A stretch of DNA of 64,000 nt, from assembly GCA_037446635.1 (NCBI GenBank), contig JBBIIG010000002.1, forward strand, positions 1-64,000. The letters are read 5' to 3'. The DNA comes from a bacterium. GTDB taxonomy: Bacteria; Zhuqueibacterota; Zhuqueibacteria; Oceanimicrobiales; Oceanimicrobiaceae. This document shows, piece by piece, positions 27,989 through 43,506 of this stretch. Under the pieces are notes generated by a model, which saw only the letters and a program-made list of their open reading frames with translations, searched no databases and was not told the origin of the DNA. Every line of letters begins with the position of its first letter. The stretch's first letter is position 1. A program made the position numbers and the translations under genes.

Positions 27989-28018
27989 TCGGGGCGCGTT
28001 CGTTTGGATGTTAAGATT

Positions 28019-31000
28019 ATGAGAACGATAACACGATCACGATCGGGAACTTTCCTGACCGTGCTATTATTTATGGGCGCGCCGGCGTTAGCGTTGGCTT
28101 CGGCCGCGCCGGATAACCCGGCCGTTGGCGCCACCACCAATTACACCATTACCTTTACACTGGATGCCGATCTACCAGCCGCCGGTTCGATAACGATCAC
28201 CTTCAACAACACCGGGTTCACGCTGGCCAGTACGATGATCGCCTCCTCCGCCGAAATCAGCGGCGGCATTTTACCGGCAACCGGCGTAACTGGGCAGTCG
28301 GTAACGTTTGATCGAGACGGTATAGGTGGGATCATTCCTGCGACAACTTCCATTACTCTCCGTATTGGCACGGTGACCAACCCTACCACTCCCAATACAT
28401 ATTCTCTCGATGTCAGCGCTACTGGCGGAACCAGCGAGTCCGCGAATTTTTCCATCGTGGTGGGGCCAAAGGCCTCCATCAGAATCAACGATGCGGCTGG
28501 TTCGGGGGGGGTTCAAGTTGGTAATTTGTCACGAAACGCCGATCAAACGATAGATTTATTCGCCTCCAGCTACGATGCCTTCGGCAATTTTATCGGCGCA
28601 GAATTAGTGAACTGGACGGTGAGCGGCGGCATCGGCAACCTCAGTAATACCTCCAACGCCAGCAGCACAACTCTAACTTTAAACTCCGTGGGCTCCGGCA
28701 CCGTAACCGCCGACAACGGCTCTGGAAATGTCGATGCCACCGGCACGATCACGGTGACGCCCGGGGCGCTGGCGAGCATTCGCGTGGTGGAGGGATCAAG
28801 TGGAGACGGGCCGGAGATGGGTTCGCGGAGCGTGACCACGGATCAGACGTTGACGGTTCACGCGGCGGGCTACGACGCCGACGGCAATTATGTTGGAGAT
28901 CAATCGGTGACGTGGAATGTGACGGGCGGCATTGGGGCAGTCAGTCCGGGCAGCGGAATAAGCACGACGTTTGACGCGCGGGTGATTGGTACCGGAACGA
29001 TAACCGCAACCCACGCGGTGGGCAGCGATGCTACGGGGACGATCACGGTGAGTGCGGGAAGTATTGCGAGCATTCGGATACGGAATGCGCCAAATAATGG
29101 TGGGAGCGAGGTGGGCGCGGTGAATTTGACGGCGGATCAGACGTTGACGATATTTGCGGCGAGTTACGATGGGCAGGGGAATTATTTAGGGGATGTGAGT
29201 GTGAGTTGGAGCGCGGCGTCGGGGAATTTGGCGCCAGCGATAAGCGGGAGTGGAAGCAGTTTTACATTTAGTCCGACGTCCGCGCCGCGCAGCGGGGTGA
29301 TTCGAGCCACACATGCTTCGGGGACGGACGATACCGGCACCATCAGCGTTAGCGTGGGCGCACTTAGTTTTGTAAGAATCAATACTGGGGCAAGCGGCGA
29401 AACCGCTGAATTTACAACGCAATCCATCAACGCCGATCAAACTTTGCAAGTCCACGCCTCCGGATACGACTCGGACGGCAATTACATAAACGATGTGAGC
29501 GTCTCGTGGAGTGTGAGCGGCGGCATAGGCACGGTTGCGCCTTCGCCGAACATTTCCACAACTCTTACTGCAACCACTGTTGGTACTGGCGTCATTTTCG
29601 CCGATCACGCCACGGCGCTGGATGACGCGACCGGCACGATCACGGTGACGCCCGGGGCATTGGCGAGCATTCGCGTGGTGGAGGGATCGAGTGAAAACGG
29701 GCCGGAGATGGGCACGCGCAGTGTAACCACGGATCAGACGTTGACGGTTCACGCGGCGGGCTACGATGCCGACGGCAATTATGTTGGAGATCAATCGGTG
29801 ACGTGGAATGTGACGGGCGGCATTGGGGCAGTTAGTCCGGGCAGCGGAATCAGCACGACGTTTGACGCCCGAGTGATTGGTACCGGAACGATAACCGCAA
29901 CCCACGCGGTGGGCAGCGATGCCACGGGGACGATCACAGTGAGCGCCGGCGCGTTGAAATACGTTCGCATCAACAGCGACGCCAGTGGCAATACGTCGGA
30001 GGTGACGACGAACACGATGACGGTCGGTGGTAGTACGTTCACGGTGCACGCGTCCGGATATGATGCGGATGACAATTACATAAATGATCCGAGCGTGAGT
30101 TGGAGCGTGACCGGCGGGATCGGGACGTTGAATCCGGGGAGCGGGCCGAGTACGACCTTGACGGCAACCACGCCGGGGACGGGCGTGATTCAGGCGGATC
30201 ACGCGACGGCCATCGATGATGCTACGGGGACGATCACGGTGAGCGCGGGAAGTATTGCCAGCATTCGGATACGGAATGCGCCAAATAATGGTGGGAGCGA
30301 GGTAGGTGCAGTGAACATGACAGCGGACGAAAGTTTGACGTTATATGCGGCGAGTTATGATGGGCCGAACGGGACGGGGAATTACTTAGGGGATGTGAGT
30401 GTGAGTTGGAGTTTAGCGTCGGGGAATTTGGCGCCGCCGATTAGCGGGAGTGGTAGCAGTTTTACGTTTAGTCCGACGTTGGCGCCACGTAGCGGGGTGA
30501 TTCGAGCCACACATGCTTCGGGGACGGACGATACCGGCACCATCAGCGTCAGCGTGGGCGCATTAAACTTTGTAAGAGTTTATAACGGCGCCAGCGGCAA
30601 TACCAGTGAAGTTACCACCGCCACCTTAGAAACCGGCCAAACCCTGACCGTGCACGCGGCGGGATTTGATGCCGATGGCAATTACCGCAACGATGAAAGC
30701 GTCAATTGGAGCGTCACTGGCGGCATCGGAAATCTCAGCGCCAACAGCGGAATCAGCACCATCTTAACCGCAACCACTCCCGGCAGCGGGGTCATTCAAG
30801 CCGATCATGCCACCGCCATCGATGATGCCACCGGACTGATTACGGTAATTTTGGGAAATGTCGATAGCATAGTCATTCGTGATGCCCCAAACAACGGCGG
30901 TAATCCCGTGACCAACGTCACTTTGACCGCGGATGAAACGATAACGATTTACGCGGCTGGCTACGATGCGCAATCGAATTACGTGGGCGATGTCTCCGTT

Positions 31001-34000
31001 GATTGGAGCGCTGCTTCTGGTAATTTAGGCCCGCCTATAAGCGGCAGCGGCAGCAGCTTGACTTTTTCCCCCACCACGGCGCCGGCCAGCGGAGTGATTC
31101 GCGCCACCCATGTGGCTTCAGGCGCCACTGATGACACGGGTACGATAACTGTGAATCCCGGCGTGCCGGTGGGTACGATTACCTTAACCCCCAATCCAGC
31201 CACTCTGCCCGCGGACAATTCTTCAACTTCACAAGTGACTTCTTCCCAAATTTTGGATGGCGATGGCAATCCCGTTGGCGCCAATCGTTTATTCACCGTG
31301 TGTTTGTCGGACACCAATTTGGCGCGAATCACGACGCCGGACGCGGATCTTGTAACTCCCGGCCGACAGGTGACGACGAATTCGAGCAGCCAATTAAATT
31401 TCACAATTCAAGCCAAAAATCTCGGCGGCACCGTCAACATTTTTGTCAGCAGCGTCGGCGGCACCGCCACCGGCAACACTGCCATCGCTATTGGCAGCAT
31501 GGCGATTTCCTCCATTTCAACCGCTTCGACGTTTGTCAGCCGCGGGCAGACCGGCATCACCGTGCAGATGGTGGTGCAAAATTTGAGCTCCACGCAAATC
31601 ACCAACTTGTCCGCCAGCCTGACGTTCACTGGCTCGGTGGATCGCACCAGCCAATATAATCAGGTGCGCACCGACGGCTTTTCCACCATTCCAGCCAGCG
31701 GCCAGCGCACCCTCACTTTTTCGGTTGGAGTATTAAGCAACGCCGCGCTGGAAACCATCACCATCGATGGCCAGGTGAACGGCGAGATCAGCGGCACGCC
31801 GGTGTCGGCGCAGGGCGCGGCCAGCACCGATAGCTGGACCGTGCAGCGCCCCGCGGAATTGCGGGCCATCAGCGTTTCCAGTACGCTGGACACCGTGGTG
31901 GTGGGGCAGCAAAATAACCCGGTGACCGTGCGGCTTTCCAACCCGGCGCTGGCCGGGTCCGCCGCGGCCGTGATTGATAATATCCAACTGAAATTTTTAA
32001 AAGACGGCGTAACCGACCGCACTTCCGATTTTTCATTTACCGCCAGCGGCGGCAACCCCACCAGCATTCCCGCCAACCAGCAATTGGATTTTAATTTCAC
32101 GGTGGGCGTGGGCGGATCGGCGGAGCCGGGCGATTACCAGATTGACGTGGAAGTCACCGGTCACGATTTCAACTCCACCACTCTGCCGCTGCAAGATTTG
32201 AATGGCGCGGACGCCCGCGCCGCCTGGAACGTCAAGGCGGCGCCGGTGCTGCAAATCGTTTCGCTGACGCCGCAGCCGGCGGCCACGGTTTTTGCGGGCC
32301 AGACCATTAATTGGACCGTGCGCATGGAAGTGCGCAACAACGGCCCCGATCCCATCGACATCGATTTTGCGCAGGCGAAAACCTTCATCCGTTTCATCAT
32401 TGGCACGGACCGAACGTCCGAGTACACCATTATTCAGCCGACGCAATTGGCGGGCGGCGGCGTGCGCTTAAATAACGCCGCCACCGGCTTCATCGATTTT
32501 ATCATCGACGTTACCGGAACAACTATCGGCACCGCCACCATCACCGGGCGGGTGGAGGGCACCGACACCGGCACGGGCAATCCCATTTTTGATGACACCA
32601 ACGACGGCGGCGCCGGCGTGGTGGAGATTTTAAGTTCTACTTCGGTGGTGCGTATCGCGCAAACGGTGCCGGTGACGCCGAACATCGAGCAGGGTGTGGG
32701 CGTGGTGAACACTGGCCAGACTTTTCAGGTGCGGGTCAACGTCCGCAACGAGCTGCAGGAGCCGGTGGTGAACGTGCAGGTGGCGCTGGAAACCAACGGT
32801 TCATCGAATATTGCTTTATCGCCGCAGACCATTGCCAGCATTGCGGAAAATGGCAACGCCGATTTGCTGTTTAATGTTACCGCCGCGCTGCTGCCAAATG
32901 CGGGGGGCGAAACGTTCACCTCCAGAATTCTGGCTGCCACCGGCGGCGAAAGCGGCCAGCCGGCGCTGCGGGGCGCGGCCTTCGACAGCCTGGCGATTTA
33001 CCGCATCCAGACCCGCGCCTCGCTGCGGGTGCAATTTACGGAGCTCAATCCATTTCAGGTCGCCGGCGATATTTTCGACGTGCGCGCGACCGTGACCAAC
33101 ACCGGCCAGGGGCAGGTGGATAATACCGGCCAGGTGACGTTGACGATACCCGCGGGCTACTCGTTCGATCTCAGCAGTCCCGCCGTCCAAAATTTTACCG
33201 TCGGCGCCACCATTCTCTGGCGAGTGATTGCCCCAAATACCGCGACCCCGCCGGAGAACTTTACGGCGACGATCACCCAGGCGCCGGTGGACATCAATAG
33301 CCGGCCGTCGTTGGCGTTTTTAGAAACGCCCTCGGTAACGCGGCAGGTGGAGACGCAGCCTCTGGGTCTGGATATTCTGAGCTTCAACGTTATCTCTCCG
33401 CCCGGGGCCGTTGACAATATTTTATCCACCGAGCAAACGTTCGACATTCGCGCCAGCCTCAGCGTCTCCGCGAATATCGATTCGGTGCGCGCCGATCTCA
33501 GCTTGCCTATCGAATACAGTTTGTTCCCGGGATTCAGCGCCTCGCGGCTGTTGCTCCCCGGACAAAGTAGCGTTACCTGGCGGGTCATTGCGCCGGCCGC
33601 GCCGCACAGTTTTCCCCGGGTGATTGAGGCGCGCATGAGGGGCTACGATCAGGGTGTGGTGCGCCGAGACACCACCGGCGAGCTGAGCATCGCCGCCGTC
33701 GTAACCCGGGTGAATCTTGATTTTGATCAATTTTTTTCCGATCCGGCGAACGTCGTTTCCATCAATCAGGCCTTTCAAATTCGCGCGCGAATTTCCAACT
33801 TGGGCGAGGCCGATGTTGAAGGAACCACCACGTTTACTTTGGATTTGGGGAACACGGGAATTCAAAGCCAGCAGCCGCTGGTGCAAAATGTCACCCCCGG
33901 CCAGCAGGTGATTTGGAACGTTACCGCACCCGCGACCGCCACGCAGTTGGACACGCTTTCGCTGCGGGTTACGAGCGTCCCCCGAGACGAAAACACCAAC

Positions 34001-35587
34001 CTGACGGCGTTCATCAACCGGCTGGAGAGAAAAATTCCCATTGCCACAGTTGATGCCGGTTTCGTTCGAATTAACAGCGTCATGGTTACTACACCGGAGG
34101 GCGCCAAAGATGGCACGCTTTCCACGGAGCAAGAGCTGACCATTGAAGCCGAAATCGAGTGGCAGGACCTGATCAACCTGCAAGCAGAGATCGAGTTTCC
34201 GTCGGTTGCTTATGAAATTTTGGATGGCAGCCGTTTTCGTGACATCGCCCAGGGACCGCTTACCAGCGTGAGTTGGCGAGTGCGGGCGCCGACCGCCCCG
34301 GCACCAGCGCAGCACTTTATCAAGATTAAAGCGCAGGGCAACGACGAAAACAATCCGTCTTTGGTGGTGGCGGCGCTGCCGGATTCCTTGCCGTTTCAAG
34401 TGGTGCAAAAGGCGCAGTTGCAATTGCTGGCTGAGATTTCGGCGCCAGCTTCGGCGCGCGATAGCGTCCTCACCGTCGGACAGAATTTCACCATCCGCGC
34501 CGAGTTGAGAAACAGCGGCGATGCGGCGCTGGTGGGAAACGACCGCGTGCGGATTACCGTGCCCGCTGGCTACACCCTCATCTCCGATTCGGCTTCGCAA
34601 AGCATTTTACCGGAGGTGCGCCAAGTGAGCTGGGATCTTCAGGCGCCCGATACGCCCGGCCGCAGTCAATCATTTATTATCATCGAAGTGGAAAGCCGCG
34701 CCGCCACCGATATCAACAGCAATCAAGTGCCGCCGCTCACGCCCAACCCGCCGCGCATCGTGATTCCGGTGCGAACCAGCGGCATTGAGCTGAAAGTTGT
34801 CCGGCTCGTCGATCGCAAACCAAGCTCCATCTCCCGCGACGCCACCAATGTCGGGATCTTTGGCCTGCAATTTGGAAACGAGGGCGACGCCCCTATTGTG
34901 ATCGACGCCATCCGCCTCAACGTGCGCGCCCGCGGCGATACGATTGCGCCGAATTCCGTTTTGAGCCGCCTCAAGGTGGTGGACTATTTCAATGCCAGCA
35001 TTGAAGAGTTGGATCTCACCTCGTTACCCGACACCGGCCCGCTGGTTTTGAATTTTCAGAATCCGATTTCGATTTCGGAGACTCAGCCGCGCTCTATTGA
35101 GTTCCGGGTGGATGTGAATCCGCAGAGCACCGCCAGCCATTTTGAATTGACCATCGACAACCCGCAAAGCGATATTTTGGCGCGCGATACCGGCTCCAAT
35201 CGCCAGGTGGAAATCGTCGATGCTACCGGGCCGATTGTTGCGGCCATTTCGTCTGGGGTGTCGGTTATTTTCGACCCGACTTTGGAGGCAAGTTTTTATA
35301 ATTATCCCAATCCCTTTGGCGATCCCGGCAAGCCAACCACCGCTTTCAATTATCGCCTCGATCAGCCCTCTGATATCTCGCTGAAAATTTACACCCTGTT
35401 GGGCGAACTGGTGTGGTCGATTTCATTCAGCGCGACCGATCTGGAGGGATTGGCCGGCACCCACGCCGGTAACATCATCTGGGATGGCCGCAACGAAAAG
35501 GGCCAAAAAGTTTTGAATGGCGTGTACGTGGCGGTTCTCACCACCAACCGCGGCAAAGTGATGACTAAAATTGCAGTAGCAAATTGA
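28019..35587 (+). CDS. Giant (about 2,520 aa) secreted Ig-repeat surface protein/adhesin with FlgD/T9SS-like CTD
   Basis: Signal peptide, nine ~100-aa YDxxGN repeats, an invasin-like domain, further beta-sandwich domains, and CTD FYNYPNPF...LKIYTLLGELVW...WDGRN...NGVY. Confidence 0.8.
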   Translation: MRTITRSRSGTFLTVLLFMGAPALALASAAPDNPAVGATTNYTITFTLDADLPAAGSITITFNNTGFTLASTMIASSAEISGGILPATGVTGQSVTFDRDGIGGIIPATTSITLRIGTVTNPTTPNTYSLDVSATGGTSESANFSIVVGPKASIRINDAAGSGGVQVGNLSRNADQTIDLFASSYDAFGNFIGAELVNWTVSGGIGNLSNTSNASSTTLTLNSVGSGTVTADNGSGNVDATGTITVTPGALASIRVVEGSSGDGPEMGSRSVTTDQTLTVHAAGYDADGNYVGDQSVTWNVTGGIGAVSPGSGISTTFDARVIGTGTITATHAVGSDATGTITVSAGSIASIRIRNAPNNGGSEVGAVNLTADQTLTIFAASYDGQGNYLGDVSVSWSAASGNLAPAISGSGSSFTFSPTSAPRSGVIRATHASGTDDTGTISVSVGALSFVRINTGASGETAEFTTQSINADQTLQVHASGYDSDGNYINDVSVSWSVSGGIGTVAPSPNISTTLTATTVGTGVIFADHATALDDATGTITVTPGALASIRVVEGSSENGPEMGTRSVTTDQTLTVHAAGYDADGNYVGDQSVTWNVTGGIGAVSPGSGISTTFDARVIGTGTITATHAVGSDATGTITVSAGALKYVRINSDASGNTSEVTTNTMTVGGSTFTVHASGYDADDNYINDPSVSWSVTGGIGTLNPGSGPSTTLTATTPGTGVIQADHATAIDDATGTITVSAGSIASIRIRNAPNNGGSEVGAVNMTADESLTLYAASYDGPNGTGNYLGDVSVSWSLASGNLAPPISGSGSSFTFSPTLAPRSGVIRATHASGTDDTGTISVSVGALNFVRVYNGASGNTSEVTTATLETGQTLTVHAAGFDADGNYRNDESVNWSVTGGIGNLSANSGISTILTATTPGSGVIQADHATAIDDATGLITVILGNVDSIVIRDAPNNGGNPVTNVTLTADETITIYAAGYDAQSNYVGDVSVDWSAASGNLGPPISGSGSSLTFSPTTAPASGVIRATHVASGATDDTGTITVNPGVPVGTITLTPNPATLPADNSSTSQVTSSQILDGDGNPVGANRLFTVCLSDTNLARITTPDADLVTPGRQVTTNSSSQLNFTIQAKNLGGTVNIFVSSVGGTATGNTAIAIGSMAISSISTASTFVSRGQTGITVQMVVQNLSSTQITNLSASLTFTGSVDRTSQYNQVRTDGFSTIPASGQRTLTFSVGVLSNAALETITIDGQVNGEISGTPVSAQGAASTDSWTVQRPAELRAISVSSTLDTVVVGQQNNPVTVRLSNPALAGSAAAVIDNIQLKFLKDGVTDRTSDFSFTASGGNPTSIPANQQLDFNFTVGVGGSAEPGDYQIDVEVTGHDFNSTTLPLQDLNGADARAAWNVKAAPVLQIVSLTPQPAATVFAGQTINWTVRMEVRNNGPDPIDIDFAQAKTFIRFIIGTDRTSEYTIIQPTQLAGGGVRLNNAATGFIDFIIDVTGTTIGTATITGRVEGTDTGTGNPIFDDTNDGGAGVVEILSSTSVVRIAQTVPVTPNIEQGVGVVNTGQTFQVRVNVRNELQEPVVNVQVALETNGSSNIALSPQTIASIAENGNADLLFNVTAALLPNAGGETFTSRILAATGGESGQPALRGAAFDSLAIYRIQTRASLRVQFTELNPFQVAGDIFDVRATVTNTGQGQVDNTGQVTLTIPAGYSFDLSSPAVQNFTVGATILWRVIAPNTATPPENFTATITQAPVDINSRPSLAFLETPSVTRQVETQPLGLDILSFNVISPPGAVDNILSTEQTFDIRASLSVSANIDSVRADLSLPIEYSLFPGFSASRLLLPGQSSVTWRVIAPAAPHSFPRVIEARMRGYDQGVVRRDTTGELSIAAVVTRVNLDFDQFFSDPANVVSINQAFQIRARISNLGEADVEGTTTFTLDLGNTGIQSQQPLVQNVTPGQQVIWNVTAPATATQLDTLSLRVTSVPRDENTNLTAFINRLERKIPIATVDAGFVRINSVMVTTPEGAKDGTLSTEQELTIEAEIEWQDLINLQAEIEFPSVAYEILDGSRFRDIAQGPLTSVSWRVRAPTAPAPAQHFIKIKAQGNDENNPSLVVAALPDSLPFQVVQKAQLQLLAEISAPASARDSVLTVGQNFTIRAELRNSGDAALVGNDRVRITVPAGYTLISDSASQSILPEVRQVSWDLQAPDTPGRSQSFIIIEVESRAATDINSNQVPPLTPNPPRIVIPVRTSGIELKVVRLVDRKPSSISRDATNVGIFGLQFGNEGDAPIVIDAIRLNVRARGDTIAPNSVLSRLKVVDYFNASIEELDLTSLPDTGPLVLNFQNPISISETQPRSIEFRVDVNPQSTASHFELTIDNPQSDILARDTGSNRQVEIVDATGPIVAAISSGVSVIFDPTLEASFYNYPNPFGDPGKPTTAFNYRLDQPSDISLKIYTLLGELVWSISFSATDLEGLAGTHAGNIIWDGRNEKGQKVLNGVYVAVLTTNRGKVMTKIAVAN
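28739..29943 (+). repeat. Near-identical intragenic repeat A (28739-29052 and 29630-29943)
   Basis: Two ~314-bp copies with few substitutions. Confidence 0.85.
29027..30562 (+). repeat. Near-identical intragenic repeat B (29027-29362 and 30218-30562)
   Basis: Copies of ~336 and ~345 bp differing by a 9-bp indel and scattered substitutions. Confidence 0.85.
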
Positions 35588-35595
35588 GATGCGCT

Positions 35596-37647
35596 ATGTT
35601 GACTTTTATCAAATATTCAGCTAAATTTTGCACCCGCGCGGCGGTGATTGCGGGTATGATACTATCGTCATTCCTCGTTGAAACATCATTTGCGCAAACC
35701 GGCGTCGGCGGCACCAAGAGCTTGTTTATGGGAGTGGGGGCGCGGCCGCTGGCGTTGGGCAATGCCTACGTGGCGGTCTCCAATGACGTCTCGGGGATTT
35801 TTTTCAACCCAGCGGGCCTGGATTATGCCGAGAAAAATAGTTTGAGCCTTTTTTATACCAATTTGATTTTCGGATCCAATTATAGTTTTGTGGGTGCAAT
35901 TGTGCCCACGCTGTCCATTGGCGCATTTGGGCTGGCCTGGGCGCGCATCAGCAGCGGCGATATTGTGGAGCGCGATATCGATCAAGTGCCGGGCGAAACC
36001 TTTGATCACAGTCAGAATTTGTTTATTCTCTCTTATGGCAAGCAGTTACTAAAAAATAAATTGAGCGTGGGGCTGAACATTAAATTGCAAACCGTGAGTT
36101 TTTCGCTTCCTAGTTTGTCCGATTCCGGCGTGGGCGGAGATTTGGGTTTCCTGTATCGCCCGTTTGATAGCGGTATTTTGGGAGACGTGTCGTTTGGCCT
36201 GAACATTCAAAACATCATCCCCCCCAAGACGCGTTTGATCAGCGCGTCGCAATCTGCTTCACCGACGAATTTCAAAATCGGGTTAGCGAAGCCAATTTAT
36301 TTTGGCGAAGAACGCAGCCGCATTACCCTGCTGTTTGATTTCAACAAAACCGAGCAGGCGCCAGGGCTCTACAATCTGGGCGCGGAATATTCGTTTAAAA
36401 ATAACGCCATGCTGCGGGTGGGGTTGAACGACGGCCTGATTGCTTTGGGCGCCGGCGCGGCTTACAGCAATTTCCATTTTGATTACACCTTCGGCAAAAT
36501 GTTCGATGCGGCCGATTTTTCCGCCGACCACCGTTTTTCCGTGACCATCGAAATCGGCAAAAGCAAAGCCGAAAGGCTGCAGCGTTTGCAAGCAAAGCGG
36601 GAACGCGAAGTCCGCCTGCGAGTGGATAATGAGTTATGGTTCACCCGCGAGACCGAATTCAACACCGCCATGGAGGACGGCCGTAAAAAATTTGAGACCA
36701 AAGACTACCGCAATGCCTATGTCGATTTTAGCCGCGCGGTTGACGCGGCGCAGACCCTGGTGGATGTGGCTATGCGGCTGCGCGGCGAGAACACTAACGA
36801 CATCGAAGCCAACATGAAAGTGGAAACCGCCAATAGCTCAGTTCAAGAAGCCCAAACCATGCTGGAGCTGGCGGAAGCCAAAAGCGATTCTGTGCGCAAG
36901 GCCGAAACTGAGTTCATCGTTCGGCAAACCGAGGCGACGACCCGCGACCGCGAGCTGCGCGATTTTATTTTGCAGCAGCGCGATAAGGGCAACGCCTTCT
37001 TCAAAAGCGGGCTGTTCTCGCGGGCGATGACCGAGTGGCAGTTGGCGCTCGACCGCATCAACCAAAACCAGGGCAACCATCTTCCGAGTTGGGTGGACGA
37101 GATCAAGCTGCAGCTCGAGAATGACATCGCCACCGCGGCGAAACAACTCGAGGGCAACGTCAAAGAGGCGATGCGGCGCGCTGAGGCTCTGGAGCGGCGC
37201 GGCGATTACGTGCAGGCGCTCAACGAGCTGAACAGCATTCGCGCCGCCGGTATGAGCGACACTGAAAGAAACGAAGTGGAACTCAGAATCAAGTCGCTGC
37301 AATCGCAATTGAGCTTCAAACAAAATTTTGACGAGGGCGTGCGTTTCTACGAAAGCAAAGACTGGAAGGCGGCCGCCGAGGCCTTCGACCGCGCCCTCAA
37401 AGTGCGGCCAAACGATTCCAGGGCCAAAAAATATTATGAAGACGCCCGGGCGCGCTCCATCGCCACCGTGCAGGAGATGCCGCCCAATCTGCGCGTCAAA
37501 TACGCCCGCGGTCTGGAGCTTTTCCGCCAAGGCAATTACAAAGCGGCGCTGGACATCTGGGAAGAGATTCGCAAGGAACAGCCCTACAACAAGCGCATTC
37601 TCGATTCCATTGACAGCGCCCGCGAGCGGCTCAAAAGTCAAAATTGA
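35596..37647 (+). CDS. PorV/PorQ-family beta-barrel fused to a C-terminal coiled-coil/TPR region
   Basis: MGVGARPLALGNAYVAVSND...FFNPAGL; barrel ends at HRFSVTIEIG, followed by ~350 aa of helical/TPR sequence. Confidence 0.8.
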   Translation: MLTFIKYSAKFCTRAAVIAGMILSSFLVETSFAQTGVGGTKSLFMGVGARPLALGNAYVAVSNDVSGIFFNPAGLDYAEKNSLSLFYTNLIFGSNYSFVGAIVPTLSIGAFGLAWARISSGDIVERDIDQVPGETFDHSQNLFILSYGKQLLKNKLSVGLNIKLQTVSFSLPSLSDSGVGGDLGFLYRPFDSGILGDVSFGLNIQNIIPPKTRLISASQSASPTNFKIGLAKPIYFGEERSRITLLFDFNKTEQAPGLYNLGAEYSFKNNAMLRVGLNDGLIALGAGAAYSNFHFDYTFGKMFDAADFSADHRFSVTIEIGKSKAERLQRLQAKREREVRLRVDNELWFTRETEFNTAMEDGRKKFETKDYRNAYVDFSRAVDAAQTLVDVAMRLRGENTNDIEANMKVETANSSVQEAQTMLELAEAKSDSVRKAETEFIVRQTEATTRDRELRDFILQQRDKGNAFFKSGLFSRAMTEWQLALDRINQNQGNHLPSWVDEIKLQLENDIATAAKQLEGNVKEAMRRAEALERRGDYVQALNELNSIRAAGMSDTERNEVELRIKSLQSQLSFKQNFDEGVRFYESKDWKAAAEAFDRALKVRPNDSRAKKYYEDARARSIATVQEMPPNLRVKYARGLELFRQGNYKAALDIWEEIRKEQPYNKRILDSIDSARERLKSQN

Positions 37648-37660
37648 TTTAGCCGGAAAA

Positions 37661-37846
37661 CTGGATTATTGTAAAAATCTTCAGATCGCCTGATGATGAA
37701 TCATCAGGCTAATTTGCTGAAGTCGATTGAAATCGACTCTAGACAGCAGCAGCTTAATTTATTAAGCTTAAGCTATTAGCTTGGAAATTCATTTCCAAGC
37801 GGTCTGCTTTCATTGACAAAAGCCATCTTCTCTAAGGGATTTTTAC
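37661..37846. mobile_element. MITE-like element, inverted and truncated copy
   Basis: Reverse complement of the 25898-26103 element with a few differences; most of one terminal IR is missing. Confidence 0.75.
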
Positions 37847-37907
37847 CGCCATTGCGTACGCCTTTTTGGCGGCGGCAGGTATATTTTCAAAACAATTCAG
37901 AATTAAC

Positions 37908-40900
37908 TTGCTAAGCAAAGTCGAAAAAGAACAACTCAAGGTACCGGCGCAAATTGATTATTTGGGCGACTTGCGCGATTTTGTCACCCAGCTCGGCAAA
38001 AAGCACAAGTTCCCGGATAAAGTCATCAATGCCTTCAAGCTGGCGGTGGATGAGGCCGCCACCAACATCATCCGCCATGCCTATCGCGAGAAAGAGGGGC
38101 TGATCACCATTCGCTCCATCGTGCGAAAAAGCAGCCTCACCATCTGCATCATCGATCAGGGCACCTACTTCGATCCCAAGCACGTCAAAGACCCGGATTT
38201 GAACCGCTACATGGACATTGGCAAAAAGGGCGGCCTGGGCATTTTCATCATCCGTAAGCTCATGGATGAGATCGACTACCACAAAACCGAGGAAGGCAAT
38301 GAACTGCGCATTACCAAGTATATCGATAAGCCGCCGGCCAAAGAGCGGTTAGTCAGCACCGTTTCCGCTATTCCGCTTTCCATCAAAGCGCGGTTTTTCT
38401 ACCGCGCCATCGCTATCATCACGCTCATCATCGCGCTGGGGTATTTGTATTTTTATTTGAAAGCCGACGATCAGGTGATGATGCAGTTCATGGATGAAAG
38501 CCGCGCCACCAACACGCAAATCGTTAATCGTGTTACCACGATCGTTACTGAGGCCGTGCAACTTGGGGTCGATTTTTTTGACGCCAGCCCAATTCGCGAA
38601 GATTTCCGTCATCAAATTTTTCATTTTGTGATCGAGGACAGCGCGGGCACCATCGTTTACTCCTCCGATCCGGTCGAAACTTATACGCTTTATGAGCGCC
38701 CGGCTGAAGCGGAGTTGCTCGAAGACGGAATTTATAAATACATAACAGACGCCGGTGTGCCGGTTTATGAGTTTGAAAGCGACATCCTCATCCGCAACAG
38801 CGACAAAAAGTTTGGCAAAGCGCACGTTTTGTTTTCATCGGCCTCCATCGAAAAAATTATTGCCCGCAGCCGTCTGAACGATCTCAAATTGACCCTGTTC
38901 ATTTTAGGGCTGAGCTACATCGGGGTGGCGGTGATCGTCTATCTTTTGGTGAACCCGCTGCGCAAGCTCTCCTCGTGGATTAAAGATTTGGGCCACGGCG
39001 AGCTTACCGACGAGATCGATATCGACACCTCCTCGGAGATCGGCGAGATCGCGCAGGCTTTCAGCGACATCACTCACAAATTCCGGGAGTCCCAAAAGAA
39101 CCTCGCCGATCAGGAACGCCTGCAACGGGAAATGAAGGTGGCGCAAGACATCCAGCAGACGCTGCTGCCGATGTCCTTCCCCGAATTGGATGGCTACGAG
39201 CTGGGCTCGTACTACGAAGCGGCCAAAGAATTGGGCGGCGATTATTATGATTTCGTGGAGGTGGATAAGGACACCCTGGGCATCGTGGTGGCCGACGTGT
39301 CCGGCAAGGGCGTTCCCGGCTCGCTGGTGATGGCCATGATCCGCCAAACCCTGCGCACCGAGGCGCGCGGCGTAAAGGACGCCGCCACGGTGCTGACGCA
39401 AGTGAACGAATTCGTCAGCAAGGACATCAAGAAGGGGATGTTCGTCACCGTTTTCTATCTCATCGTTGATTCCAAACGCCGAAGCATCAACTTTGCCAGC
39501 GCTGGCCACAACCCGATGATCCTGTATCGCAACAGCACCAAGAAAACCTATTATCTCAATCCCAAGGGCTTCCCCATTGGCATTCAGTTGCCGGATAAAG
39601 AGCTTTTCAAAAAATCCATCGAGTCCGAAGAGATTCAACTGGCGAAGGATGACGTCCTGCTGCTTTACACCGACGGCATCACCGAGGCCATGAATCCGAA
39701 CCGCGAGCTTTTTGGTGAGGAGCGCTTGCAGAAAGTGTTGAGAGACTTCGGCCATTTGCCGGTCAATGATTTTGTGGAGAAGCTCAAGCAGGCGATTTAC
39801 TCGTTCACCGAAGGCAACCCGCAATACGATGACATCTCCCTGGTGGTCATCAAAGAAAAATCGACCCGCGAGGAAGATGAGCTGCGCCGCGCGAAAGAAG
39901 CCCACTTGTTGATTGGTCAGGGCGTCAGCATCCGCGAGGCCTGCGAGCGCGTCAACCTCACGACCTACGCTTATTATAATAAGTACAAAAAGATTTTTGA
40001 AGAAGAAGGAGTGGATGCCTTTGAGGTCGGCAATGAAGCGTCCATCGAAGCCAAGCATCTTAGCATTGAAGAAAAAGTCAAGATTCTCGATATCATCGCT
40101 CAGCATCCGGAGTACGGCGCCGGCCGCATCAGCGAGGTATTGAACAGCGAGCGCTACGGGTTCGAGAAAATTAGTGAAAATAAAATTTATGACGAATTGG
40201 TGCGCAGCCGGCTGAACACCCGGCCGCTGCGCGAGGCTTACATCCAGCGGCTCCGCAGCGGGCGGCGGCGATTGAAACCGCCCGGCACGCCCATGATGAC
40301 TTTAGACGGCAAATTGATCATCGAGCGCCAGGATGATATGGGAATGTTGCCGCCGCCGAAAAGAGAGCTCCCCACGCGGAAAACCGAGAGAGATATCGAA
40401 CCCGCACCCCTGTTCGACGATTCCGCCGAATCTTTGTTGACCGTGGCGCCGGATAAGACCACGAGCAGGGTGAGTGAATTTGACATCGAGGAAGAGCTGC
40501 AGTTTGATGTGCCAATCGATGAGCTGCTGGCCAAAGATCGCAGCCAGGACGAGATGACGCCGGTCGCAGCGCCGCCGGAGGCGCAACCGCTTGAACCCAC
40601 TACTGCCGCGCCGTTCGACGAGCAGGAGTCTTTGTACGATCAGTTCACCGAGGCCCACAGTGAGCCTCTGGATCCAGACTTTGCGGACGAAGAGACCGCG
40701 GCCGCCGCGGAGGAGATCGCCGCAACCGAAGCCTCCGTTTTCGACGATAATTTATCTTTCCAGAATTATTTTTCCGACGCCGCGCAGGCAGACGCCTCCG
40801 ACGACGATTTTGAAGACGACGAGCCGGCAAAGCAGGTCACGATGGTTGACGAAGTGGATGAAAACGAGCCCGCCCGTTTTGAGCCGCTGGTAGCGAAAGC

Positions 40901-41603
40901 CGTCCCGGAGCAAGATGAAAACAACCGCCATCCGGTCGAAGAAGCGATTTCCGAGGAGTCGGAGGAGATAGATGAGAGCTTCCTGATGTCCTCTGCAGTC
41001 GATGAGCTGTTAGCCGAAAACACGGAGGTGGTGTTCGAGGACGACGGCTCGGAAGTGGAGGAGGTTGAAACGGCGGACAACAACCGCGAGGAAGCGTCAT
41101 TTGCTGATTTAATTCAGACCATCGACCAGGAGATCGTTTACATTTCCGACCCTTCCAAAGCCGCGGCAAGTACCGCGAAAAAGAAAAGAAATCGTAACGG
41201 CGAGCTCGAGCAGGGGGTTTTGGCAAAGAGCAATCGGCTAACCGATAAAGAGAAAGTTCTCATCAAGGGCATTCGCTATTACAAAAATCAAGAATATTCT
41301 CGCGCCATCCAGGAATTTCAAAAGGTGTTGAAAGAGTATCCCGATTACAAAGAAGCCCACAGCATTTTGGGCAACGCCTATTTCAGAAATCAGATGTACA
41401 ACGAAGCCGCGTTTTCATACGAACGAGTGAAAGAGCTCGATCCCAATGACATAACAGCTTACGAAAATTTAGGGGTTATCTACGCCAATCGCGGCGATTA
41501 TCGGCAGGCGATCAGCGAGTGGAAAAGAGTTCTGGAGCTGAACCCGGAGCGCACTGATGTTAAAGAGAAAATCAAGAAAGCTTTGCGAATGATTCACACT
41601 TAA
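37908..41603 (+). CDS. Multidomain sensor: RsbW-type HATPase kinase, TM/extracytoplasmic domain/TM, HAMP, SpoIIE PP2C phosphatase, tandem HTH, acidic linker, TPR
   Basis: LAVDEAATNIIRHAY, IDQG..FDP and GGLGIFIIRKLMD kinase boxes; GGDYYD, ADVSGKG, YTDGITEA and YDDISL phosphatase motifs; C-terminal TPRs. TTG start uncertain. Confidence 0.85.
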   Translation: MLSKVEKEQLKVPAQIDYLGDLRDFVTQLGKKHKFPDKVINAFKLAVDEAATNIIRHAYREKEGLITIRSIVRKSSLTICIIDQGTYFDPKHVKDPDLNRYMDIGKKGGLGIFIIRKLMDEIDYHKTEEGNELRITKYIDKPPAKERLVSTVSAIPLSIKARFFYRAIAIITLIIALGYLYFYLKADDQVMMQFMDESRATNTQIVNRVTTIVTEAVQLGVDFFDASPIREDFRHQIFHFVIEDSAGTIVYSSDPVETYTLYERPAEAELLEDGIYKYITDAGVPVYEFESDILIRNSDKKFGKAHVLFSSASIEKIIARSRLNDLKLTLFILGLSYIGVAVIVYLLVNPLRKLSSWIKDLGHGELTDEIDIDTSSEIGEIAQAFSDITHKFRESQKNLADQERLQREMKVAQDIQQTLLPMSFPELDGYELGSYYEAAKELGGDYYDFVEVDKDTLGIVVADVSGKGVPGSLVMAMIRQTLRTEARGVKDAATVLTQVNEFVSKDIKKGMFVTVFYLIVDSKRRSINFASAGHNPMILYRNSTKKTYYLNPKGFPIGIQLPDKELFKKSIESEEIQLAKDDVLLLYTDGITEAMNPNRELFGEERLQKVLRDFGHLPVNDFVEKLKQAIYSFTEGNPQYDDISLVVIKEKSTREEDELRRAKEAHLLIGQGVSIREACERVNLTTYAYYNKYKKIFEEEGVDAFEVGNEASIEAKHLSIEEKVKILDIIAQHPEYGAGRISEVLNSERYGFEKISENKIYDELVRSRLNTRPLREAYIQRLRSGRRRLKPPGTPMMTLDGKLIIERQDDMGMLPPPKRELPTRKTERDIEPAPLFDDSAESLLTVAPDKTTSRVSEFDIEEELQFDVPIDELLAKDRSQDEMTPVAAPPEAQPLEPTTAAPFDEQESLYDQFTEAHSEPLDPDFADEETAAAAEEIAATEASVFDDNLSFQNYFSDAAQADASDDDFEDDEPAKQVTMVDEVDENEPARFEPLVAKAVPEQDENNRHPVEEAISEESEEIDESFLMSSAVDELLAENTEVVFEDDGSEVEEVETADNNREEASFADLIQTIDQEIVYISDPSKAAASTAKKKRNRNGELEQGVLAKSNRLTDKEKVLIKGIRYYKNQEYSRAIQEFQKVLKEYPDYKEAHSILGNAYFRNQMYNEAAFSYERVKELDPNDITAYENLGVIYANRGDYRQAISEWKRVLELNPERTDVKEKIKKALRMIHT

Positions 41604-41614
41604 ATTTTGTTTTG

Positions 41615-41643
41615 TTGACTTTTTGGTCATTTTCATTTATATT
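41615..41643 (+). promoter_or_regulatory. Putative sigma70 promoter for the STAS gene
   Basis: TTGACT-17 bp-TATATT, with AGGAG RBS before 41688. Confidence 0.55.
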
Positions 41644-41687
41644 CATCAGCGTTTTACTGTTTAAATTATATTTACCAGGAGAAACCC

Positions 41688-42395
41688 ATGGAAGGCATAC
41701 AGGTTTCAGTTGATAAGGCCGGTGTCAATCAGCAGATTTCTATCATCAAAGTTGGCGGCTACATCGATACCACCACCTCCGCTGAGCTTGAACATGCTTT
41801 ATCTACATTACTAAAAGCCAATCGCCATAATATCATCATAGATTTGGGGAATGTCGATTACATCAGCAGCGCCGGCTGGGGTATTTTCATCAGCGAGATC
41901 AAAGGCATCCGCGAAAAGAACGGCGATCTCAAATTGGCGCGCATGATCCCGGATGTCTATGAGGTCTTCGAGCTGCTGGAATTTCATTACATTCTGCGCG
42001 CGTTTGATACTCTGGAAGAAGCCATCGCTGATTTCGATCAAGAGGGCGGAAGCGGCGGCCGCGTTGCTTTGCCAGTAAAGGAGCGCGAGGAGCGTGATGA
42101 GCACGTGCAAGTGGCGTCCAAAACCGAGCCGAAAGTCATGCAGGTGGATGGAAATTACAAGCCCAAACCAGAGCCGCAGTTAGAAACCATCGAAGAGAAG
42201 CTGCGCCGCATCATCATCGAAAACCCCGATTCCGGCATGTTTCAAATCATTCGCACCCTCAACACACCGACTTACGGCAACATCAAGCTGGGCTGGTTTG
42301 ACATGCGAAAATATTTGAAGCAACTGAATCTCGACACCAAAAAGAAGAGAATGGCGTTTTTCAAGCAGCACAGCTTTGGCAAGCTTGTGAATTAG
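41688..42395 (+). CDS. STAS anti-sigma-factor antagonist (RsbV/SpoIIAA-like) with C-terminal HTH-like extension
   Basis: GYIDTT and IIIDLGNVDYISSAGWG phosphoacceptor motif; extra ~65-aa domain after a linker. Confidence 0.85.
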   Translation: MEGIQVSVDKAGVNQQISIIKVGGYIDTTTSAELEHALSTLLKANRHNIIIDLGNVDYISSAGWGIFISEIKGIREKNGDLKLARMIPDVYEVFELLEFHYILRAFDTLEEAIADFDQEGGSGGRVALPVKEREERDEHVQVASKTEPKVMQVDGNYKPKPEPQLETIEEKLRRIIIENPDSGMFQIIRTLNTPTYGNIKLGWFDMRKYLKQLNLDTKKKRMAFFKQHSFGKLVN

Positions 42396-42492
42396 GAATG
42401 GGGCCTGGACGCGGCGCGCGATCAATTTCTTCACCCTCTCCACCTTCCCTATAAATTTCTACCGTTAGAAACTACGAGCGCCGTTTTTTGTC

Positions 42493-43506
42493 ATGTTTAT
42501 CGATCACGTCAGAATTCGGGTGAAAGCGGGCAACGGCGGCAGCGGCTGCGTCAGTTTTCGCCGCGAGAAGTTCCGCCCCAAAGGCGGCCCGGACGGCGGC
42601 GACGGCGGACACGGCGGCAGCATTTACATCGCCGCTGACCCGCGGCTCTCCACCCTGCTCGATTTCAAATATCACCCCAATTTCAAAGCCGAAAGCGCCG
42701 AACACGGCAAAGGCTCTAATCAGCACGGCAAAGGCGGCGCGGACTTGATTTTAAAAGTTCCAGTGGGAACCGTGATCAAAGACGGTGCAACCGGCGCGGT
42801 TCTGGCCGATTTGATTGCGCCCAACCAAAGCGTGCTCGTGGCGAAAGGCGGCCGCGGCGGCCGCGGCAATGCGCGTTTTGTGAGTCCAACCAACCAGGCG
42901 CCGCGCCATTGGGAGCCGGGGGAATTTGGCGAGGAGAGAGAGCTCGAGCTGGAGCTGAAGCTGATCGCCGATGTTGGGCTGGTGGGTCTGCCCAACGCCG
43001 GCAAGTCCACCCTGTTGTCGAAGCTTTCCGCCGCGCGCCCGAAAATTGCCGATTATCCTTTCACCACGTTGAAACCCAATTTAGGAATCGTCAAACACCG
43101 CGATCACGACAGCTTCGTGATGGCCGATATTCCTGGTCTCATTGAAGGCGCTCATCTCGGCAAGGGTTTGGGGATGGAATTTCTGCGCCACATTGAGCGC
43201 ACCTCCGTGCTGGTGTTTTTGCTGGATTGCACCAGCGAAAACCTCGAGCGCGATTATCATACGCTGTGTGAGGAGCTGCGGCACTATAAATCCGAGCTGC
43301 TGGCGCGGCCGCAAATTGTCGCCATTACCAAAATAGATTTGCAGCCGCAAACGGACTTGGTCCGCTTCGAGAAAAAAATAGCGGCTCCGGTTTGCAAAAT
43401 TTCCAGCGTGAGCGGCGAAGGGCTGGCCCATTTGAAAGAATTAATTTGGCAGCAACTTCAACTTATAAAATCCAATTCTCAAAAACGGGTCGAATATGCG
43501 GAGTGA
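42493..43506 (+). CDS. obgE: GTPase ObgE/CgtA
   Basis: Gly-rich Obg domain, GLPNAGKST, YPFTT and DIPG motifs. Confidence 0.97.
   Translation: MFIDHVRIRVKAGNGGSGCVSFRREKFRPKGGPDGGDGGHGGSIYIAADPRLSTLLDFKYHPNFKAESAEHGKGSNQHGKGGADLILKVPVGTVIKDGATGAVLADLIAPNQSVLVAKGGRGGRGNARFVSPTNQAPRHWEPGEFGEERELELELKLIADVGLVGLPNAGKSTLLSKLSAARPKIADYPFTTLKPNLGIVKHRDHDSFVMADIPGLIEGAHLGKGLGMEFLRHIERTSVLVFLLDCTSENLERDYHTLCEELRHYKSELLARPQIVAITKIDLQPQTDLVRFEKKIAAPVCKISSVSGEGLAHLKELIWQQLQLIKSNSQKRVEYAE

Follow-up and report, generated by a model that had tools for sequence, protein, structure and literature searches.

An IS481-type transposase head, likely domesticated long ago, in a membrane-anchored kinase/phosphatase of Zhuqueibacterota, with a copy of its second half on the neighbouring STAS protein

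Why would a bacterial sensor with a serine kinase and a serine phosphatase in one chain also carry, directly behind the phosphatase, something that looks like the head of a transposase? The question is raised by a window of 64,000 nucleotides (the whole stretch analysed here: positions 1 to 64,000 of contig JBBIIG010000002.1, assembly GCA_037446635.1, Zhuqueibacterota), to which all positions below refer. An initial annotation had read the segment as an IS481-type double helix–turn–helix (HTH) that was exapted by a signalling protein. Here we ask how firm that likeness is, how long the segment has been kept, what it may do for the sensor and its neighbour, and from where it may have come.

The gene of the membrane-anchored kinase/phosphatase sensor lies at 37908..41603, on the forward strand like all features named here, and encodes 1231 amino acids from a TTG start at 37908 (the open frame as listed is 37866-41603, 1245 amino acids). 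Its product consists, in order, of an RsbW-type kinase, two transmembrane (TM) helices with an extracytoplasmic domain between them, a HAMP domain, a SpoIIE phosphatase, the HTH module, an acidic linker and TPR repeats. The kinase domain (HATPase_c_2, 37941..38318, Pfam residues 26-151, E 6e-29) has intact N-box and G-box motifs of the GHKL type, in columns that are invariant across the ortholog alignment. Likewise, the SpoIIE/PP2C phosphatase domain (39267..39854, residues 468-663, E 7.5e-50) retains its metal-binding Asp motifs, again in invariant columns. The first TM helix, the variable extracytoplasmic domain and the second TM helix occupy 38391..38957 and are followed by the HAMP domain (38934..39062, Pfam E 6e-08); in distant orthologs Pfam assigns the extracytoplasmic domain to sCache_3_2. 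Since the two helices peak in hydropathy at residues 181 and 344, the kinase, the phosphatase and the HTH segment are all predicted to be cytoplasmic. Towards the C-terminus come the acidic linker (40353..41195, net charge -61, poorly conserved) and the TPR repeats (41253..41585, by Pfam). The linker's sequence drifts, yet most of the phylum's orthologs have it; as a speculation, it could screen basic HTHs or mimic DNA for them.

Upstream of the sensor gene, weak family matches point to a surface protein of 2527 residues, rich in repeats and T9SS-like at its C-terminus (28004-35587), and to a fusion of a PorV-like protein with TPR repeats (35584-37647). At a distant locus (L082), too, a surface protein is followed by a PorV-like TPR protein, the sensor and a STAS protein with an HTH copy (see below). 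Other neighbouring frames are presumably obg and dprA homologs. A perfect nine-pair hairpin (37779-37800) lies in the spacer upstream of the sensor gene, which is 260 bases long here and just a few dozen in most relatives.

The module itself spans residues ~670-793 of the open frame 37866-41603 (about 39873-40244) and starts ~20 residues past the last PP2C motif. It comprises a first HTH (HTH1, 39873..40013), with a remodelled recognition helix and a one-residue insertion in this class; an inter-HTH linker (40014..40058) that is acidic here, whereas IS481 and distant orthologs have a basic one; and a second HTH (HTH2) with the L-x-T-x3/4-R helix after it (40059..40244), the most conserved part and the one copied on STAS proteins. 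A basic tail with a KPPGTP motif follows (40245..40313), in which K804 and P806-P809 are invariant in 120/120 orthologs ranked on the module. The initial annotation was right that the segment sits in frame after the PP2C domain within one protein, as the peptide falls inside a single open frame; a frameshift or assembly artefact behind it was considered and rejected. It had also found the right site, at 39890..40260, but the module runs slightly past those limits, and the tail then extends to ~40313.

Several searches place this module with transposase N-termini. The window's segment (144 residues) matches the IS481 family of NCBIfam (NF033577, positions 2-114 of 284) at E 1e-6 and the IS3 family at E 4.8e-6, so that the annotated kinship with IS481-type heads is borne out. 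Because only the N-terminal third of the IS481 profile is present, the segment scores far under the cut-offs (28.5 against a curated 224 for NF033577); matches to Pfam HTH_32, HTH_28, HTH_23 and HTH_21 (E 2.6e-4 to 0.012) are below curated cut-offs as well. An NCBIfam scan of 28 proteins included 12 module-bearing orthologs or likely ortholog fragments (P0156, P0158, P0188, P0189, P0191, P0192, P0212, P0217, P0234, P0243, P0246 and P0252). IS481 was the top transposase family in 10 of these 12 (E 3e-10 to 1.4e-20), IS3 and IS630 in one each, and the matches always fell at profile positions ~1-120. That is, the IS481 signal is stronger in distant orthologs than in the window's own protein. Among open frames taken from 34 IS loci, a profile of the module matches the N-termini of 13 (best E 1.8e-14). 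When four annotated IS481 heads are compared with it profile to profile, the probability is 98 (E 2e-13) for the broad alignment and 86 for close orthologs alone, and the ESM Atlas returns HTH_32, HTH_28 and transposase clusters at 0.94-0.96. One ortholog fragment retrieves 149 plasmid records, and among the 30 listed, 17 stand under an annotation naming IS481. The match takes in the whole two-HTH unit, including the linker length and the helix after HTH2; this L-x-T-x3/4-R helix occurs in 141/141 near fusions, 45/55 far fusions and 4/12 IS481 transposases, the last being ISRpe1-like. Sequence searches against solved structures gave nothing significant for the module (best E 0.036 and 0.01); IS481 N-termini are described as weakly HTH-like in one source (PMC10045372).

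How widely is the module kept? It is found in 157/167 genomes of the phylum (103/105 good ones), at the same gene position by tally, and the kinase-to-phosphatase part, counted alone, in 155/167 (102/105 good ones). All 155 genomes with the enzymatic part also have the module, and the listed coordinates of the two, compared by eye, abut. These tallies include two unpublished genomes (G158 and G162), and the conclusion is independent of both. Searched with the segment, 966 candidates yielded 309 proteins, with named relatives labelled KSB1 or Zhuqueibacterota. The best 120 have median identities to the window of 66% in HTH1, 74% in HTH2, 76% in PP2C and 77% in the kinase, as against 23% in the extracytoplasmic sensor domain and 22% in the acidic linker; these medians are biased because the proteins were ranked on the module, and the 155 and 157 genome tallies provide the unbiased check. 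Compared with a same-genus ortholog, the module shows pN 0.06 and pS 0.87, and as synonymous sites are saturated no dN/dS is given.

Beyond the phylum, 8000 clusters were scored with a profile of 18 distant orthologs. Of these, 1741 matched at E<=1e-100, and many of the 1741 may be other SpoIIE proteins; NCBI names among them include Glassbacteria, Firestonebacteria, Latescibacteria and Krumholzibacteria. Among the matches listed, the module lies 19-23 residues past the PP2C end in 120/120 distant orthologs. In a metagenome scan of 80 loci, the 4 true orthologs all had the module (one with HTH2 only), and it was found at 0/76 other SpoIIE loci. With one distant ortholog as query, a homolog search gave 4 proteins only. 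The module is thus present and intact across orthologs, about as conserved as the phosphatase and found in other phyla: it is not a decaying remnant.

The gene after the sensor offers a clue to function. It encodes a STAS protein of the anti-anti-sigma type (41688..42395, by Pfam/NCBIfam and synteny) and follows the sensor gene in 22/23 loci, the remaining locus stopping at a contig edge. Its C-terminus carries a basic copy of HTH2 (42186..42359, BLASTP E 1e-5). In profile-profile comparison this copy matches the sensor's HTH2 with a probability of 94 and ISRpe1-type IS481 with a probability of 5. A loop motif is common to the STAS HTH2 (19/22) and the near-sensor HTH2 (102/120) and missing from IS481 (0/12); the STAS copy therefore likely arose by duplication within the signalling system, to judge from these sequences. 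STAS-HTH2 domains occur in 164/167 genomes of the phylum (105/105 good ones), mostly twice, in a tally with 167 matches beyond those listed, a few of which may be the sensor's own HTH2. A second STAS-HTH2 gene of the window's genome (L024:9918-10631, the same as G000:C5:23917-24630) is flanked, from a reading of the frames, by glycogen-synthase-like and by polysaccharide export or priming-glycosyltransferase-like genes, a candidate target cluster. Two STAS proteins (P0204 and P0233) have HTH2 twice.

The STAS gene has a conserved sigma-70-type promoter (41615..41643, TTGACT-17-TATATT). A search for an operator upstream of the gene found none: the sole conserved DNA is this ordinary promoter, which follows the genome's general pattern (12 strict matches). 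A palindrome over the window's -35 box was considered as an operator and rejected, as it is not conserved. Among the neighbouring open frames of the window, no cognate alternative sigma factor was recognised.

Is the module on the sensor a DNA-reading surface or a protein-binding one? Over the same columns, the module of close orthologs (120) has a median net charge of -6 (-11 to -1), that of distant orthologs (120) one of +7 (-1 to +16) and the matching part of 12 IS481 transposases one of +3, and the inter-HTH linker follows suit (-4, +2 and +2). Within the phylum, with the tail included, the module carries 0 to +8 in 12 genomes of other classes and -4 to 0 in 8 genomes of the window's class. 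The STAS HTH2 is basic throughout, at +4 to +10 in 22/22 and, for another 18 genomes, at +1 to +13 (in this class-wise table the G019 'STAS' row, which is the sensor's own HTH2, was dropped, and the G017 region stops at a contig edge). Positions that we take to be DNA-touching have changed too. In 9/12 IS481 transposases the first recognition helix starts with an Arg, a position taken by Thr in 107/120 near and by Pro in 96/120 far fusions, and HTH2 helix 3 bears a Glu in 116/120 near and 105/120 far fusions where IS481 has Ile or Val. The STAS HTH2 retains the basic, transposase-like helix-3 pattern.

Five long sensor paralogs (P0178, P0193, P0202, P0220 and P0229; 1360-1990 amino acids, many TPRs) have a lost or decayed HTH1 and a kept HTH2. 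Since these TPR-rich paralogs match from HTH2 onward only, HTH2 is, in the sequences compared, the constant unit, and HTH1 is the part remodelled in the window's class. Given the acidic charge and the lost recognition-helix Arg, DNA binding by the window's sensor module is somewhat disfavoured.

The pair displays the hallmarks of partner switching: a GHKL kinase, a PP2C phosphatase and a linked STAS protein with a serine motif, read from the translation. We take Ser61 to be its likely phospho-acceptor, by comparison with SpoIIAA. The HTH2 copy on this predicted substrate, overlooked in the initial annotation, changes the likely mechanism. As the sensor module is acidic and lacks the recognition-helix Arg while the STAS copy is basic, we favour, with a probability of about 0.45, a reversible sigma-free switch similar to CapK/CapS, in which the STAS-HTH protein would bind DNA and the acidic sensor module would dock its substrate or its own dimer. 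In outline, an external signal would act through the TM-HAMP helices on the balance of kinase and phosphatase, and the sensor would phosphorylate or dephosphorylate the STAS serine. The state of that serine would then decide, as in CapS, whether the basic STAS HTH binds DNA. In the window's lineage, docking, whether of the STAS HTH or within its own dimer, is a likelier role for the acidic sensor module than independent reading of DNA. The pair likely controls genes without a sigma factor.

This docking switch is consistent with the many distant orthologs in which STAS domains are fused to the sensor, and with the paralogs that keep HTH2 after losing HTH1. It also has a precedent in CapS, a STAS protein with a winged HTH (wHTH) that acts as a repressor and is released by a GHKL kinase (PMC13373217). 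Against it stand the ordinary promoter, with no operator found, before the STAS gene, the basic, transposase-like HTH1 of distant orthologs and the weakness with which a lone three-helix HTH2 binds DNA unless it is dimeric. Moreover, a second HTH2 was sought in the STAS-fused distant sensors and not detected; there the sensor module is the sole HTH, so docking on a STAS HTH cannot be the module's general role.

The main rival, which we regard as doubtful for the window, is that the sensor's double HTH itself binds DNA. The protein would then be a membrane-tethered transcription regulator, following the logic of ToxR and CadC, and would act alone or with the STAS-HTH protein on adjacent half-sites. 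This suits distant lineages better: their 120 modules are basic, carry an S-P-x-T-Y-Y-R-x-K helix and, among those listed, form the C-terminus of the protein in 40/120, and no other HTH was detected in the STAS-fused forms. The charges in the phylum's other classes agree with it, as do the invariant helix-2 Arg754 and the basic tail (+6) behind the module in the window's own lineage. The same lineage speaks against it through the acidic module and linker, the missing recognition-helix Arg, the acidic residues in HTH2 helix 3 (none there in IS481), the loss of HTH1 from some paralogs and the failure to find an operator.

A broader proposal, which we hold only tentatively and consider rather unlikely as a whole, is that one ancient capture of an IS481 head built an output system across several phyla. 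The HTHs of sensor and STAS protein would assemble in a transpososome-like manner on membrane-proximal DNA, forming a sigma-free gene switch driven by serine phosphorylation, and the same head, captured independently by glycosyltransferases and GspC proteins (see below), would be a recurrent module of domestication.

Less probable again is that both HTH copies are pure protein-interaction tags by which the kinase/phosphatase specifically recognises its two STAS substrates and that the output is not DNA binding, as in SypA, the target being, for example, surface polysaccharide or T9SS cargo. The complementary charges of the sensor module and the STAS HTH2 would fit such tags. No DNA binding was seen for a mariner HTH that nematode F-box proteins had taken up (PMC12062965), and SypE acts on SypA below the level of transcription (PMC3610818). 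However, helix 3 of the STAS HTH2 is still basic and transposase-like, and at the distant locus L082 the modules of both partners are basic, which simple charge pairing does not fit.

Whatever its present role, a transposase origin of the module followed by retention under selection is, taken alone, very probable. The initial annotation's claim of exaptation stands in so far as IS481 homology and long retention under selection are concerned; its direction rests on parsimony, as the tree does not nest the module in the sampled IS481. In a quick tree of 96 dereplicated heads over 126 columns (39/93 inner branches open), a single branch (SH-aLRT 90) sets all 33 fusion rows and 13 fragments apart from IS481 and from double-module proteins. 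The tree is compatible with a single origin of the fusions and gives no direction; by parsimony, one ancient capture of the module from a transposon is likely.

The alternative of a common cellular tandem-HTH ancestor shared with IS481, or of flow from host to element, seems quite improbable. The tree leaves the module outside IS481, and similar modules occur on other cellular proteins, both as this alternative would have it. However, the likeness extends over the whole two-HTH unit, the nearest NCBIfam and ESM Atlas families are of transposase type, and across bacteria IS481, IS3 and IS630 have this head in common, whereas the fusion occurs in a few phyla only. The other cellular proteins include GT2 glycosyltransferases (P0199, P0203, P0225, P0236, P0241, P0259 and P0231), with N-terminal IS481-type double-HTH modules, mostly two and strongly basic; they form a separate tree group and possibly reflect an independent capture. 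Type II secretion GspC proteins (P0254 and P0256) carry repeated IS481-type HTHs at the N-terminus. Three further proteins (P0211, P0216 and P0235) consist of 3-5 tandem IS3-type HTH_21 repeats and give no DDE match, P0211 being named from a Chlamydiales bacterium.

No other transposon feature was found at the locus itself. As the initial annotation had stated, there is no DDE domain: a core profile, built from 13 IS481 open frames and with 37 matching frames from IS loci as positive control, finds nothing in the six frames of the window (best E 0.95) and matches 1/388 stored proteins (P0261, not a fusion). Its statement on terminal repeats also holds, as 39500-42500 contains only short, chance-level pairs. 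The GC content of the module (0.52) shows no anomaly beside that of the PP2C domain (0.54), the window's genome has one full copy, and no mobile, patchy or multi-copy pattern is seen across the phylum. The segment is therefore rejected as an IS481 insertion or transposase, lacking as it does DDE core, inverted repeats and mobile distribution. Although genuine IS481-like elements occur in 35/167 genomes of the phylum, a recent, functionless IS481 remnant that is in frame by chance is ruled out by conservation, given the fixed position, near-universal presence, enzyme-like degree of conservation, saturated pS, normal GC and absence of any trace of ends or DDE core.

Eukaryotes offer well-described cases in which host regulators took over the DNA-binding domains of DDE transposases, and vertebrate transcription factors reportedly captured transposases (10.1101/2020.05.07.082677). 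For a core signalling gene of bacteria we found no such capture described, nor any account of this module, in a search of mostly open-access literature. Here, a likely ancient bacterial domestication of an IS481-type head, with a putative regulatory output, is fixed across a mostly uncultured phylum (103/105 good genomes) and reaches others. It offers a testable answer to the question of what the output of sigma-less partner switches is, namely a STAS protein with an HTH of its own. Under the reversible control of a transmembrane sensor, such a protein would carry the CapK/CapS principle from phage defence into envelope signalling.

In its presumed working the pair resembles known systems, yet comparison sets it apart from each of them. 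Like IS481 heads (NF033577 ~1-120; HTH_28/HTH_32), the module has two HTH units at the same spacing, a P-x-x-G-x-x-R-I turn and the L-x-T-x3/4-R helix of the ISRpe1-like group; unlike an IS481 transposase, it lacks DDE core and ends, keeps to one fixed locus as an in-frame fusion, has lost the recognition-helix Arg and is acidic in HTH2 helix 3. In CapK/CapS, according to Chambers et al. (EMBO J 2026, PMC13373217), a GHKL kinase frees a STAS-wHTH repressor from DNA, and deletion of the CapK HTH has no effect. As in the window, a STAS protein that ends in an HTH is encoded after a GHKL anti-sigma-type kinase, the latter bears an HTH too, and no sigma factor is needed. However, CapK is a soluble HTH-STAS-GHKL protein that senses ssDNA and has no phosphatase, whereas the window's sensor spans the membrane and includes a PP2C domain; the CapS HTH is winged, while that of the window's STAS protein appears related to the IS481-type HTH2; and CapK/CapS lies beside immune operons, while the window's pair belongs to a near-core cluster beside T9SS-type genes. 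Membership in that system is rejected: the sensor is not of HTH-STAS-GHKL form and no immune operon is adjacent among the neighbours read.

SypE of Vibrio fischeri likewise has a serine kinase at the N-terminus and a serine phosphatase at the C-terminus of one chain that acts on a STAS protein, SypA (PMC3610818), a target type that is predicted here. SypE has a central REC domain where the window's sensor has TM-sensor-HAMP between the enzymes, with an HTH on both partners, and its abstract mentions neither a membrane sensor nor an HTH (PMC3610818); membership is rejected for want of REC and with TM-sensor-HAMP in its place. The closest parallel to the capture itself is F-box A2 with its mariner HTH, where a host gene took up a transposase DNA-binding domain and kept it under selection (PMC12062965). 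The window's module differs from such eukaryotic fusions in being bacterial and of IS481 type, in its fusion with a Ser kinase/phosphatase and in its duplication on the predicted substrate.
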